A stretch of DNA of 64,000 nucleotides, taken from positions 21,414 through 85,413 of IMG/VR virus record IMGVR_UViG_3300004481_000333. One strand, given 5' to 3'. The DNA comes from a virus. Numbering within the stretch: the stretch's first letter is position 1; every line of letters begins with the position of its first letter. This document shows, piece after piece, positions 1,027 to 64,000 of this stretch. The notes under the pieces were generated by a model that was given only the letters and a program-made list of their open reading frames with translations, ran no database searches and was not told where the DNA came from. The position numbers and the translations under genes were made by a program.

Positions 1027-1207
1027 GTCAGGACAGCTGAAAGGATGCGGAGGAAGTGGAGCATGACCATCACGCACGCACGGGCCCGGGACATTCTGGT
1101 CGCTGTGGGCAACAGGATGCAGAGGAAGTGGAGCCGATCGAGCGCGGTCCTGCGGGTCACTTCACCTCGGCGTCGCTGTGGGCAACAGGATGCAGAGGAA
1201 GTGGAGC
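1027..1207. CRISPR. mini CRISPR array A: 3 repeats of 36 bp, 2 spacers (36, 37 bp), no adjacent cas
   Basis: Identical GTCGCTGTGGGCAACAGGATGCAGAGGAAGTGGAGC at 1099-1134 and 1172-1207; degenerate copy 1027-1062 keeps GTC start and the last 21 nt with 1 mismatch; period 72-73. Confidence 0.8.
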
Positions 1208-1225
1208 TAAGGCCTGGCAGGCAAC

Positions 1226-1262
1226 CAAAGAACGGCCCCCATGGAACAACGCCACGGGGGCC
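1226..1262 (-). terminator. intrinsic terminator-like hairpin
   Basis: - strand GGCCCCCGTGG-loop-CCATGGGGGCC followed by GTTCTTT. Confidence 0.55.
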
Positions 1263-1475
1263 AGGCATCATTACCTCGATCTGAGGCTCCCTTCGGCTCT
1301 CGCCGACGTGCTTGGGATTAGGTAGGAGAAGACTAGCACGCCAGCGAGGTCGTTGACCAGCCGGCGCATTCGTGCCAGAACGAATAAGCCCCGCCGACCG
1401 AGAATCGACGGGGCTCTGGAAGGATCGAGACCTGCTACATCAGGAGTAGCAGGATGGCAGTCTTCGGTCAACCAG
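1226..1475 (-). ncRNA. putative structured RNA next to array A (tracr-like candidate)
   Basis: Stems 1299-1348, 1387-1415, 1431-1453 and 1352-58/1466-72; C-A mismatches on + become G-U pairs on -. Confidence 0.5.
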
Positions 1476-1491
1476 GTCCACTGGGGGCAGC

Positions 1492-2712
1492 GTGAGTCGG
1501 TGGTGCAGAGCCGAAAAGGCCGAGCGTTCCCGGGTGAGGGAGCGGGGTCCACGGCAGCCTGAACATCCACCAGACTTCCCCGAAACCGAGCGTTTCGCTC
1601 TCGAGCGGGTCTTCAGCTGGCTTTGCTGGGTCTCGTCGTCGCCTGCGGGATCGATGCTGGGTCGTCAAGAGCTTTTCGGGCTGCCGATCCGAGAATGCCA
1701 GCGGTGTAGGGGCACGGGGCTGGTTCAGCGCCAGCCACGCCGGGAGCCCCGGTTCGCGGAGTTCGCGATCCTACTGGGCTGCTTGGAGGAGGAGGCGAGG
1801 CAGCGGTGGGAGGCGCTTCAGGCCCAGATCGAGCCAGAACTGGGGGACAAGCAATGCCCGAGATGTCGAGGAAGCGGAAGGACGCAGGCCAGGATCGGGG
1901 CGAAGCCCATCGGTACCTGGTATCAATCTCCGTCGATTGAGTGCCCCGCAGGCGTCCGGAACTGCTCGGGTCAGGCCCCATGGTCAGAAGAGGTCGTGTG
2001 CGCATCGGGGCATCCAGACGCTCGCGACTGGTATGAGCCCAACCCTGAGAGCTATGCCTACATTGGGGCACAACTGTCCAGGTTGCTGCTGGTAGAGCGC
2101 CGGCACGGAGCTAGGTCCGTGAGTGTGCTGCAGATCTGGTACGGCCCGGACGCGCGACGGTATGACCCCGAGGAGGTCCCGATCCCGACCGACGATGCTT
2201 TGCGCGTGCTTGAGCTTGCGCATCAAGAGGGCGCGTTGGTGCTGGACGTCGAGACCGAAGAGGACGTTCCGGCTGAGATCGCGAAGCGACTCAAGTCCTA
2301 CAACGAGGAGTGGCGGGACCGGCACGAGGCGGAACGTAATGGTAGCGCGATTGCGCCGTACTCCATGGGCGCGTTTGAGATCTCGGCTCTGCTGCGTCCC
2401 AAGCGGATCCAGCGATCCGAAGAGCTGGGGCGTCAGGCACAGCTGGTCCAGATCTGGCCCGCGACCGCGACGGGGCGCAAGGCGCTTCGTGGCATGTCGG
2501 ACATCGAGAATTTGCGTTCCACCATTGAGACCAAGCGGGGTGGACACCGAAAGGTCGCTCAGCTGGACCGGGAGGCGGAGAAGCTGTTGAGTCGAGCGCA
2601 GCGGTATTGGTGCGCGACCAAGCGGGTATCACCGACTCTCATCGTCGTGGCGGACTGGAGGGCAACCGCCGAGGTTCTGGTGAAGGAAATCCTTGCCCGG
2701 AGGGCGGCGTGA
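1492..2712 (+). CDS. CxxCxGxG zinc-finger protein, possible Q-like late regulator
   Basis: CQRCRGTG and CPRCRGSG motifs; function is inference. Confidence 0.55.
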   Translation: MSRWCRAEKAERSRVRERGPRQPEHPPDFPETERFALERVFSWLCWVSSSPAGSMLGRQELFGLPIRECQRCRGTGLVQRQPRREPRFAEFAILLGCLEEEARQRWEALQAQIEPELGDKQCPRCRGSGRTQARIGAKPIGTWYQSPSIECPAGVRNCSGQAPWSEEVVCASGHPDARDWYEPNPESYAYIGAQLSRLLLVERRHGARSVSVLQIWYGPDARRYDPEEVPIPTDDALRVLELAHQEGALVLDVETEEDVPAEIAKRLKSYNEEWRDRHEAERNGSAIAPYSMGAFEISALLRPKRIQRSEELGRQAQLVQIWPATATGRKALRGMSDIENLRSTIETKRGGHRKVAQLDREAEKLLSRAQRYWCATKRVSPTLIVVADWRATAEVLVKEILARRAA

Positions 2713-3155
2713 TGGAGCGCAGATGGCTAAGGCTGCGGGAAGCTGCGGAACGGCTCGAGATGGGGCGCGACCGGAACGCGGCGCGCAAACTCGAACTCGA
2801 CCTCATGGATGTCCAGAAACGGACCGGGGTCACGATGCTTCGCAGGAAGGGTCCCGGTAGCGCGATCCTAGTGGACTGGGATCGAGCGGAGGGACACCTG
2901 GCGCGTCGGAAAGCCACGGCGGATCAGTACCAGGATTGGCACGACGAGCTCTGCCGGCTCGCGGCCGAGATGGCGGATCAACGCGACAACGTGAACGTGC
3001 AGCCCCAGATTGACCGGATCAATGGGCGTCTGGACCGACTTGGCTGTCAAATCGATACCGTCCAGGAGGATGCGCGCCGGCGCGATTCCGCCATGCTGGC
3101 CATGCTGACCCAGCTGGTGGCCAAGATGGGGGAGCTGGCGCGAGATCCTACGTGA
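2712..3155 (+). CDS. HTH (excisionase/MerR-like) protein with coiled coil
   Basis: N-term WLRLREAAERLEM; start overlaps upstream stop. Confidence 0.6.
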   Translation: MERRWLRLREAAERLEMGRDRNAARKLELDLMDVQKRTGVTMLRRKGPGSAILVDWDRAEGHLARRKATADQYQDWHDELCRLAAEMADQRDNVNVQPQIDRINGRLDRLGCQIDTVQEDARRRDSAMLAMLTQLVAKMGELARDPT

Positions 3156-3645
3156 TCGCAAGGCTAGACAGGACCTCGTCTGCTGGGCTGTACGTGTAGT
3201 CTCCCCTCCGAGCTTTGCGCCAGCGTTCGAGTTCGCTGGTCCAGACGGCCTCTCCGTCATTGGACCACGCGTTCGACTGGCCGTCGAAGGGTCGGAACAA
3301 GTGAACGACGTCGATTCCGCGCTTCAGAAGCGGGACCGCGATCAGGGAGTAGCGATGACAGTCTGTCGGGTTTTCTTCCTGACACATCAGGATGACGTGA
3401 CCAGGATGGTTCTCGAGCCATGCGAGTCCCGCGGTCGTGACGGAAAAGGGAGGCTTGTTTCCCAGCGTTTCTCCGCGCCAAACGTACCTACGTCCCAGTA
3501 GGGTCGTGAGGTCGTCGCGTGAGAACCCGCGCTTTACGCGCCCAGAGGGGCGCGCTCGAACGTCAACCAAGAGGGAGCTCGTCCGGTCCACGAGGGCGAA
3601 AAGCTGGCTAGTTGCGAGGTGCTGGTATCCGACGCTTAGGTACAT
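3148..3645 (-). CDS. DUF488 family protein
   Basis: SVGY, LVDVRARP, LMCQEENPTDCHR motifs. Confidence 0.8.
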   Translation of the reverse strand: MYLSVGYQHLATSQLFALVDRTSSLLVDVRARPSGRVKRGFSRDDLTTLLGRRYVWRGETLGNKPPFSVTTAGLAWLENHPGHVILMCQEENPTDCHRYSLIAVPLLKRGIDVVHLFRPFDGQSNAWSNDGEAVWTSELERWRKARRGDYTYSPADEVLSSLAIT

Positions 3646-3714
3646 GCGTTTCCGATCTCGGTAGCGCGTGGCCACCGCTACGGGCCTCCATGACTGGGGA
3701 CCCGGATGCGGAGG

Positions 3715-62730: not shown

Positions 62731-62739
62731 GGTCGCGAC

Positions 62740-63270
62740 ATGACACTCGAGCAAGCACTGCTGGCGTTACTGCTGGCTCAGCCGGCGTACCATGTCGAGA
62801 TCCCAGACCAGACGCGTCAGGATCGCCTGGAGGCGGTGGCGCACGAGTTATCGGCACTTCCGCAGACCGTCGCGGTCGCGCTGGCGGTCCAGGGCTACGC
62901 CGAAAGCGGGTGGGCCCGGTACGTGGCGGAAGGATGTACCGAGATCCCGAAGGGGTCCCCCGACTGCGACAAGGGGCGAGCTCGAGGTTACTGGCAGTTG
63001 TGGCGCAACACGTGCCCCTCCGCCTATGAGTACGCCGCTGGAACCCGAGAGAGTCTCCACGAGGAGGTCTCGTGTGCGGCCCGAATTTGGAACTCAAGTG
63101 CGCGCCGGTGTTCCGCCATGCGTGGCATCCCGGAGGCTCAGGGCGGATTTGCCGCGTTCTCCGGGTCGTGCGTGGCCCGCAGCTCGGAACGCCGCGCAAC
63201 GGCCTACAGGTCCGCGTTGGCGCGGCTGGAACGCATCCGGTCTCGCCCGGTCGCGAGGGTCGAGCCATGA
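62740..63270 (+). CDS. lysozyme-like/lytic transglycosylase with signal anchor
   Basis: YAESG...DKGRARGYWQL. Confidence 0.65.
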   Translation: MTLEQALLALLLAQPAYHVEIPDQTRQDRLEAVAHELSALPQTVAVALAVQGYAESGWARYVAEGCTEIPKGSPDCDKGRARGYWQLWRNTCPSAYEYAAGTRESLHEEVSCAARIWNSSARRCSAMRGIPEAQGGFAAFSGSCVARSSERRATAYRSALARLERIRSRPVARVEP

Positions 63271-63364
63271 CGGCGCGCTCGCCCTGGGCCGAGCTTGCGG
63301 CAATCTCATGGGGCACGGCCCTTGGGGCCGTGGGTTACTGGCTGATCGCGTGGCTCGTGTGGGG

Positions 63365-63556
63365 ATGATGTCTTCAAGACCAATCCGACCCCCCGAGGCC
63401 CAGCAGAAACGCCACGCCTGCCTGCTGTGCCAGCACGAGTGGGTGGGCCCCGCAGTGACAGTCTGTCCCGCCTGCGGGCGCCACGCTGTCAGGTGGCTTG
63501 AGTCCGGAGAGTGGCTGCGGGCGAGCTACCAGGGCGATACAGTCAGAAAACCCTAG
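63365..63556 (+). CDS. small zinc-ribbon protein
   Basis: CLLCQHEW...CPACG. Confidence 0.6.
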   Translation: MMSSRPIRPPEAQQKRHACLLCQHEWVGPAVTVCPACGRHAVRWLESGEWLRASYQGDTVRKP

Positions 63557-63599
63557 GCTGCCGAAGTCCGGCGACTGGCCGTGGCCTGTACCCACGGCA

Positions 63600-63831
63600 G
63601 GCAGGCTCGACCCCTGCCGGCAGCTCCGCGCCAACACGTTGTGCCGCCCGCCCCCCTGGTGTGCACCGTGTTGGCGCGCCTTACTCTATGGGGCCTGGGC
63701 TTCGCTTCCTAGCCCAGGCGGCCATGCTGGACCCGGACCAGTCCCCATTGAGGACCCGGGCGTCGATGTCCCCCGTTCGCTTCGGCTAGCGGGGGGCTTC
63801 GGCGTTTTGTGTCGACAGACCCAATGCGTAC
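63600..63831 (+). ncRNA. putative structured RNA next to array B (tracr-like candidate)
   Basis: Stems 63627-38/63667-78, 63693-701/63711-19, 63759-63806 with G-U pairs and cUUCGg loop; repeat-complementary segments. Confidence 0.5.
63759..63810 (+). terminator. intrinsic terminator-like hairpin
   Basis: Long GC stem, cUUCGg loop, then GTTTTGT. Confidence 0.6.
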
Positions 63832-63836
63832 CTACG

Positions 63837-64000
63837 CCTCCAATCACGTTGCACTTGCATCTCCGTTGACACCTCGAAACCAAGCTGGGAAGGTCTTGGC
63901 CGGCCTCAACCTCCAATCACGTTGCACTTGCGTCTCCGTTGACACACGGGACTTGCGAGGCCATCCGACAGAGGGTCGAACCTCCAATCACGTTGCACAC
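63837..64000. CRISPR. mini CRISPR array B: 36-bp repeats, spacers 37 and 35 bp, runs off window
   Basis: CCTCCAATCACGTTGCACTTGC(A/G)TCTCCGTTGACAC at 63837-72 and 63910-45; third copy from 63981 diverges after 18 nt. Confidence 0.85.

Follow-up and report, generated by a model that had tools for sequence, protein, structure and literature searches.

A phage genome fragment with two probable Cas12f-like CRISPR loci, predicted non-cutting effectors and a candidate tracr-like element inside the effector gene

What effector does an array of short palindromic repeats that are clustered and regularly interspaced (CRISPR) serve when it stands in a viral genome with no cas gene in sight? Primary reports reportedly describe cas-less mini-CRISPR arrays of viruses, and two arrays of this apparent kind, A and B, lie near the two ends of a 64,000-nt stretch of viral DNA (hereafter the window), which comprises bases 21414-85413 of the 85,413-bp IMG/VR record IMGVR_UViG_3300004481_000333 (G000 below). 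An original prediction, made from the window alone, took both as guide cassettes for a compact class 2 effector encoded beyond the window or borrowed from the host, with a structured flank beside each array supplying a scaffold of the type of trans-activating CRISPR RNA (tracrRNA). Comparison with the rest of the record and with related phages points to another answer. The fragment probably carries two type V, Cas12f-like CRISPR loci of sister lineages, whose effectors would be natively non-cutting and whose tracr-like element would be embedded in the effector coding region.

The record is classed as linear, and its right end is also that of the window (position 64000). Its completeness is estimated at 78% (CheckV), and the terminase large subunit, portal protein and tail sheath that it encodes mark it as a tailed phage. 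Two IMG/VR relatives with direct terminal repeats, G001 (111,732 bp) and G002 (106,685 bp, with a near-identical sibling, G003), are related to it across the structural module, with protein identities of 45-78%. A more distant comparison is provided by L036, a 4.5-kb contig of an Armatimonadetes metagenome-assembled genome (MAG).

Extension of the contig to the left of the window shows that array A is not cas-less, as had been claimed. Window positions 1-247 (+ strand) are the 3' end of an effector gene and encode a zinc ribbon, RuvC-III and a C-terminal helix. The full gene (G000:C1:19849-21660, equal to window -1564..247) starts 1564 nt before the window, ends 780 nt upstream of array A and encodes a protein of 603 aa, P0001. 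This protein matches NCBIfam guided_TnpB (E 2.8e-5, residues 220-551), Pfam Cas12f1-like_TNB (E 0.0024) and the AsCas12f chains of the PDB (E 2.8e-5). An AlphaFold2 model built from an alignment of 57 family members (predicted local distance difference test, 88.3) has Cas12f structures as its best PDB matches in Foldseek, headed by AsCas12f (8j12, E 4e-20), and the features of the TnpB/Cas12 superfamily, namely a RuvC-fold core with WED/REC lobes and a C-terminal zinc ribbon (TNB), are all present. A point against this assignment is that the guided_TnpB and TNB scores both lie below the curated cut-offs. The statement that no cas gene is visible holds for Cas1, which a Pfam search found in none of four phage records, three of them 99-100% complete (cas2 was not searched for), and fails for the effector. 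The expectation of a compact class 2 effector beyond the window is borne out for array A, where a type V protein lies just past the window edge; its RuvC site is degenerate, and a cutting effector is unlikely.

The same arrangement, an effector gene adjoining a CRISPR array on the same strand, is found at locus A of G000, in G002/G003, in G001 and in L036. The effectors of G002 and L036 are 55% and 34% identical to P0001. The G001 effector, P0002, is the product of a 640-aa open reading frame (ORF); it passes the Pfam OrfB_IS605 cut-off (33.7 vs 30.5 bits), and its model also finds AsCas12f in Foldseek (E 2.9e-22). Profile comparison shows that the P0001 and P0002 families are homologous (hhalign probability 99.3%, E 1.5e-20, 286 columns). 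A profile of five close relatives retrieved 542 proteins at E<=1e-3 among 1.84 billion representatives, and matches in the ESM Atlas were limited to generic TnpB/Cas12f-like clusters. Among the 301 genomes searched in the phylum to which MAG G004 belongs, the effector family occurs in one, G004 itself. Sequence upstream of the effector start shows no conservation between G000 and G002. In G000 the effector is directly preceded (19687-19845) by a 52-aa ORF, which matches no helix-turn-helix family in Pfam and is absent from the same place in G002.

Would such a protein cut its target? In a phmmer alignment to AsCas12f, Cys361 of P0001 occupies the position of the RuvC-I Asp, and by hhalign P0002 has His in the same column. 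Asp is found in this column in 0 of the 57 family members (R 24, H 15, C 6, L 4, V 3, I 3, M 1, N 1). The RuvC-II Glu is kept in 41 of 57 members and is replaced by Asn472 in P0001 and by Pro in P0002, and the RuvC-III Asp is kept in 42 of 57, among them P0001 (Asp550). P0001 accordingly has Cys361, Asn472 and Asp550 in place of the intact D-E-D triad of Cas12f nucleases. The clade-wide loss of the RuvC-I Asp, together with the further losses in P0001, argues that these effectors bind DNA under RNA guidance without cleaving it.

Some of these residues also speak against that reading. Since most members keep the RuvC-II Glu and the RuvC-III Asp, the active site may be rearranged or may have an RNA-processing role, and P0001 and its three closest relatives (P0003, P0004 and P0006) share a G-V/I-D motif with an Asp four residues past the canonical position. 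The effectors might accordingly still be nucleases, acting through a rearranged centre (for example with the Asp at position 365 of P0001) or by another route, and the loci would then provide ordinary cleavage interference against rival phages; rearranged RuvC sites are described for TnpB clades in the accessible text of PMC10691335. This alternative seems quite improbable, as no member has the RuvC-I Asp itself, the nearby Asp is absent from P0005 and other listed family members, P0001 has lost the RuvC-II Glu as well, and both RuvC-I and RuvC-II residues are replaced in P0002. DNA binding without cleavage is therefore the reading carried forward here.

Between the effector gene and array A lies a second gene, ORF2 (P0007; 213-950, + strand). 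Its first 35 nt overlap the end of the effector gene, 76 nt separate its stop from the first array A repeat, and its 245-aa product is helical in the N-terminal part and has a coiled coil at the C-terminus. Family searches with this protein gave only sub-threshold coiled-coil matches in Pfam and none in PHROGs. Its homologs are 66% identical in G002/G003 and 28% identical in L036 (E 5e-7), and the order effector, ORF2, array is the same in G000, G002/G003 and L036. Only four ORF2 homologs were found among 5.8 billion proteins; two of these come from contigs (62,528 and 2,636 bp) whose sizes equal those of the contigs with the effector homologs P0003 and P0004. By this comparison of gene neighbourhoods, ORF2 is a conserved partner gene of the effector, and its product would act as an accessory factor.

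Array A (1027-1207, + strand) consists of repeat 1 (1027-1062), spacer 1 (1063-1098), repeat 2 (1099-1134), spacer 2 (1135-1171) and repeat 3 (1172-1207). The 36-nt repeat is present in two exact copies, at 1099-1134 and 1172-1207 (0 expected by chance). The remaining copy, at 1027-1062, shows 69% identity over its full length: its 5' half has diverged, and a single A>G change is found in its otherwise preserved 3' 21 nt. A degenerate copy had been predicted as the third repeat. The degeneration is real, and the copy is the first repeat of the array, with its guide-proximal half intact. Array B (63837-64000, - strand) has repeats at 63837-63872 and 63910-63945, the latter with 1 mismatch, and a third copy that begins at 63981 and is cut at 64000 after 20 nt. 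The last two bases of this copy differ from the other two copies and are the same as in the G001 repeat. The half repeat that had been described here turned out to be an assembly cut, the contig and the window both ending inside the copy, and the leader of array B would lie beyond the contig end. On these repeat copies the two small arrays themselves are real. The four spacers of the window compare with 22 in G002 and about 12 in G001.

The relationship proposed between the two repeats was also confirmed. Over 36 ungapped positions, repeats A and B share 17 identities, a level reached by 1.25% of 20000 shuffles (p=0.0125), which is weak alone. The repeats of the relatives bridge the two: those of G002 and G001 agree at 22/36 positions (0/20000 shuffles), and that of G002 agrees with window repeat B at 20/36 (p 5.5e-4). 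Repeats A and B are thus related rather than members of unrelated families. The 3' 22 nt of repeat A are conserved in the G002 repeat, its 5' part being variable, and the L036 array repeat is related to repeat A. When repeat B is read on the - strand, its 3' 18 nt match the repeat of the 13-repeat G001 array without a difference. Beyond these relatives, a 20-mer of repeat A had one match in IMG/VR, in a coding region of an unrelated low-GC contig, which was treated as chance; for the B-type repeat, IMG/VR and the JGI metagenomes yielded only G001 (present twice) and one chance match in a low-GC contig.

In which direction are the arrays read? The leader is placed on the effector side because of four observations. 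The G003 array has one spacer more than that of G002, directly after the first repeat, that is, at the effector-proximal end. The last G002 repeat keeps its 5' half only and runs directly into a protein gene. In G001, the degenerate repeats are at the array end distal to the effector. Finally, on the effector strand the 18-22 nt of repeat just before each spacer are invariant in every array, and the other half varies even within an array, as array A (repeat 1) and array B (third repeat) show. Against the first of these it can be said that the extra spacer of G003 could instead be a deletion in G002. Comparison with the relatives shows that array A reads on the + strand and array B on the - strand. 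The earlier reading direction, in which the arrays were transcribed from the structured flanks, is reversed by the side on which leader and effector lie, by the new spacers and by the distal decay of repeats in the relatives.

The leader of array A occupies 951-1026 (+ strand), between the ORF2 stop and the first repeat. Window positions 930-1070, from the ORF2 stop through the first repeat, align to G002 with 82% mean column identity and contain a near-identical block of about 60 nt, a level of conservation that is set against effector proteins only 55% identical between the two phages.

What, then, are the structured regions on the other side of the arrays? Flank A (1208-1490, - strand), downstream of array A, has two terminator-like hairpins (1263-1233 and 1416-1386), and its minus-strand folds have z scores of -5.2 and -5.5. 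Flank B (63558-63836, + strand), downstream of array B in the array direction, has several hairpins, ending in a hairpin and U-run at about 63770-63815; it has a fold z of -4.4 on the + strand vs -1.4 on the - strand. Thirty random 281-nt windows of the contig served as control (mean z -0.35, minimum -2.2). The order of multi-hairpin region and terminator ascribed to both arrays thus stands in part: the folds are unusual and flank A has its two hairpins, but a terminator consensus scan of 61500-64000 called 0 terminators, and evidence for the hairpin and U-run of flank B comes solely from the fold and from the alignment to relatives. Neither Rfam nor tRNA scans of the window gave a match.

In the earlier model, the arrays are cas-less and transcribed from the flanks, with the repeats read as GCTCCA... 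and CCTCCA..., and the flank RNAs are tracr-type scaffolds for an effector from elsewhere. The stability of both flanks, the strand bias of flank B and the hairpins in which both flanks end, 20-28 nt from the array, would fit this model, and a repeat-like hairpin arm of flank B at 63627-63647, as + strand RNA, could pair with about 14 nt of the repeat of the CRISPR RNA (crRNA), with two G-U pairs and one bulge. The model is nevertheless highly improbable. Array A has its effector gene and conserved leader on the opposite side, and the new spacers and decayed repeats of the relatives are at the wrong ends for it. No counterpart of flank A follows the G002 array, where a protein gene comes directly after the last repeat, and similarity of flank A to G001 and G002 was nothing better than E 0.03; on this comparison flank A is not a conserved part of the CRISPR module. 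The two flanks had been proposed for co-alignment, and direct alignment gave no convincing similarity between them. When the guide-proximal 24 nt of each repeat were scanned for duplexes along the whole contig, no flank window came among the best anti-repeat candidates; the best window near array A ranks 11th and is coding, and the best near array B ranks 33rd and is outside the flank.

Flank B has a further history of its own. Its segment 63718-63808 matches G001 56541-56628 (E 1e-6) and G002 9699-9787 (E 2e-5), sites that lie 1.6 kb and 8 kb from the respective arrays, each on the strand opposite the CRISPR array. Judged from these matches, the end of flank B is a recurrent terminator-like phage element that closes a converging transcription unit and is not part of the CRISPR cassette; the shared hairpin and U-run, which has further hairpins upstream, may be an operon terminator or a small RNA. 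The proposal that the flanks are guide scaffolds is not supported by these results. A 17-bp-arm hairpin at 63627-63678 has arms that resemble the B repeat core and its complement; it might be a fossil repeat or an anti-repeat, and its pairing is not outstanding. A minus-strand ORF at 1271-1570 in the flank A region has flat codon-position GC and was not taken as a gene.

A partner RNA remains plausible, so that the predicted tracr dependence survives with a new location. The candidate is a split anti-repeat block in the 5' coding region of the effector (G000:C1:19883-20010, equal to window -1530..-1403, + strand), about 1.4 kb to the left of the window. The block is about 93% identical between G000 and G002, as against 55% for the effector proteins, and among conserved residues the fraction of identical codons is 45% over the whole gene, 100% at aa 31-46 and 83% at aa 16-27. 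It holds 7-nt and 11-nt complements of the guide-proximal repeat half, in an order fit for antiparallel pairing and with hairpins between them. In one 8-bp hairpin, three pairs differ between G000 and G002 with pairing kept. Within the first 200 nt of the G000 effector ORF, the match to the repeat core is an exact 11-nt complement, a length that 0 of 1688 other 200-nt windows reach. The G001 effector ORF has, at +100 nt, an exact 10-nt complement of that phage's own repeat, a length found in 2 of 2198 windows; it is preceded by a hairpin and by a second, shorter segment. In L036, both anti-repeat segments differ from those of G000, and the local repeat differs in a matching way. For the three A-type sequences RNAalifold predicts 24 pairs, of which 5 have both partners changed. 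A duplex-energy scan picked the effector 5' coding site in both G000 and G002. These observations make the embedded block a better tracr-like candidate than the flanks; it may be made as RNA and used as tracrRNA.

Several results weigh against this candidate. The duplex-energy scan ranks the embedded site only 19th in G000 and 110th in G002. The exact anti-repeat of G002 is only 7 nt, a length equalled by 428 of 2085 windows, and its 11-bp pairing needs one G-U pair. The covariation rests on three sequences, and the block also encodes the conserved N-terminal peptide motif of the family, so that part of the conservation may be at the protein level. When repeats were set against effector 5' regions in an RNAcofold matrix, predicted intramolecular structure prevailed and the result was uninformative. 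A search for sequencing runs listed none of RNA, and one DNA run contained a small share of the words. The embedded anti-repeat could also be a regulatory site, at which pairing of pre-crRNA repeats with the effector mRNA 5' end adjusts how that mRNA is translated or how stable it is, the 36-nt repeat alone serving as the handle. The element lies on the mRNA sense strand at +50 to +140 nt, a position that suits translational control, no separate small-RNA promoter or terminator was identified at it, and the accessible text on another phage type V system, Cas12r, describes it as tracrRNA-free (10.64898/2026.04.20.719267). We consider this regulatory reading unlikely, since the closest solved relatives, Cas12f, use long tracrRNA scaffolds (PMC13472631, in its accessible part), the 3' half of the repeat is purine-rich and has no internal hairpin usable as a handle, and the conserved covarying hairpins extend beyond the pairing segments.

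Which effector belongs to array B? In the complete relative G001, the array begins inside the last codons of the P0002 ORF, and by analogy the effector gene of array B would lie just past the contig end. Array B could also be a true orphan, with no B-type effector in the missing ~22% of the genome, served in trans by a G001-like co-infecting phage or by the host, or simply a decaying remnant. A single TnpB-like gene was found in the 85-kb record, the B-type repeat is confined to one other record in the databases searched, and the phage already has locus A. An orphan array is nevertheless rather doubtful, given that the contig, from a record short of complete, ends in the array on the leader side, exactly where G001 has its effector gene, and that the functional 3' 18 nt are intact in all three B repeats.

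The spacers give little indication of the targets, and this too counts against the proposed function. No protospacer was found: the arrays have no match in GenBank phages (plasmids were not searched), and no spacer of G000, G001 or G002 matches its own genome or the other two over more than 19 nt. The 24-mers of spacer A1 and of the leader-proximal B spacer have no match in IMG/VR (the other two window spacers were not searched there). G002 and G003 differ by one spacer and no Cas1 was found in the phage records, which suggests that host enzymes serve for spacer acquisition.

Taken together, the following scheme can be proposed. Locus A is complete on the + strand, with the 603-aa effector, the overlapping coiled-coil gene, the leader, and three repeats with two spacers, and of locus B only the distal part of its array is present, the assembly having broken there. 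A guide would consist of the 3' ~20 nt of a repeat and the spacer that follows it; guides might also be made from the sequence after the last repeat, as in Cas12r. The guide would pair with the tracr-like element in the first ~140 nt of the effector coding region. The guide-loaded, non-cutting effector would then bind matching DNA and block transcription or replication of the target, probably a competing mobile element or a host gene, with the coiled-coil ORF2 protein as a cofactor.

Other features of the fragment and its relatives may be recorded here. The ORF at window 1492-2712 encodes two CXXC-X-G-X-G fingers and has a weak PHROG match to an anti-termination protein Q-like family (E 9.3e-5). 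Its homology to a 618-aa counterpart in G002 begins only at residue 27; it looks N-terminally shortened and adjoins the tandem terminator-like hairpins. Long 9-nt-periodic runs at 41706-42150 and 56319-58250 encode Gly-X-Y collagen-like repeats. Beside these collagen-like genes stands a 950-aa ORF (52898-55750) with 42-44% identity over 241-364 residues to ORFs of G001 and G002. A 132-nt unit is repeated in 4-5 tandem copies of 81-87% identity at 60307-60966 and probably encodes repeated protein domains. Judged by translation only, a 655-aa ORF that precedes the Cas12f-like module of L036 (98-2065) is DinG-type helicase-like, and an 889-aa ORF of G001 (48176-50845), a few genes upstream of the effector, is SMC/RecN-type ATPase-like.

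Type V systems that do not cut are already known. In the accessible parts of the sources, V-M, V-C and the predicted V-O and V-P are named, together with inactivated branches of Cas12f (PMC12669027, PMC10691335), and gradual RuvC inactivation is described in the V-M subtype (PMC10691335). Activators of the dCas12f type linked to sigma-E have a mutated RuvC and are proposed to bind DNA without cleavage (Hoffmann et al. 2026, PMC13472631), and the same source mentions a separate dCas12f cluster near CRISPR arrays, possibly of repressors. A literature search, with supplementary material outside its scope, found no description of the present clade, of an ORF-embedded anti-repeat or of the coiled-coil partner. 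It is tentatively proposed that the clade is an undescribed type V subtype of ~100-kb tailed phages, a Cas12f-derived silencer lacking the RuvC-I Asp, with a coiled-coil partner, the equivalent of a tracrRNA in the first ~140 nt of the effector ORF, and two diverged versions, each with its separate array, possible per phage. The clade may instead correspond to a V-U variant in PMC10691335 or to the dCas12f cluster that PMC13472631 links to CRISPR, as far as the accessible text of these sources allows comparison.

If the scheme is correct, tailed phages would use miniature, naturally disabled Cas12f systems, sometimes two per genome, and RNA-guided silencing would be a weapon or a regulator in conflicts between phages or between phage and host. 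The conserved coiled-coil partner could supply the output of an effector that does not cut. A guide scaffold inside coding sequence would escape searches for intergenic tracrRNA genes and would tie the expression of protein and scaffold to one transcript. The effectors, predicted DNA binders of 570-640 aa, could be candidates for compact repression tools. More generally, before an array at the edge of a window or contig is trusted as cas-less, its neighbouring sequence is needed.

Among the known systems, Cas12f (V-F, for example AsCas12f; PDB 8j12, 7wju, 8dzj) is the best sequence and structure match for both effector lineages. Common to Cas12f and these loci are a compact effector, a C-terminal zinc ribbon, 36-nt repeats and a repeat 3' half apparently built for pairing with a partner RNA. 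The present effectors differ in being 150-200 residues longer than AsCas12f and in having a coiled-coil partner gene, no cas1, cas2 or cas4 gene is seen, and the candidate anti-repeat lies inside the effector ORF rather than in an intergenic tracrRNA gene. The sigma-E dCas12f proteins (PDB 9n9c, 9n9m) resemble them in being Cas12f-derived with a mutated RuvC, and rank 12 for P0002 and 13 for P0001 among the fold matches. According to the accessible text of PMC13472631, those proteins are C-terminally truncated, mostly without arrays, used with chimeric single guides, found without tracrRNA, linked to rpoE and helix-turn-helix genes, and come from Bacteroidota. The clade in the window, in contrast, keeps the zinc ribbon, the Asp550 C-terminus and the arrays, has a coiled-coil partner and is carried by a phage. 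The truncation, rpoE operon and array-free chimeric guide of the sigma-E systems are not found here, the only nearby sigma-like signal being Pfam Sigma70_ECF at E 0.15 in the ORF at 1492-2709.

Cas12m (V-M; PMC11013384, PDB 8hhl) is like this clade, as read here, in being a compact type V effector of ~600 aa that occurs on mobile elements and silences by binding. Its fold match is much weaker (template modelling score by target 0.34-0.37), it is placed in another branch, and the accessible text on it mentions no ORF2-like partner. Cas12r of Thermus phages, likened by description only, is phage-encoded like the present locus, has 564 aa and is followed by a short array with no adaptation genes; a single repeat is enough for a guide, including one from the sequence after the last repeat. 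It differs in requiring an active RuvC (D238A abolishes interference), in its 29-bp repeats and in that no tracrRNA was seen, as far as the accessible text reports (10.64898/2026.04.20.719267). With the cas-less viral mini-arrays, as covered in the accessible part of a review (PMC11656645), the window shares very short arrays in a viral genome and the lack of adaptation genes. Array A is unlike these in having its own adjoining effector and leader, and array B, truncated by the assembly, is not demonstrably minimal.

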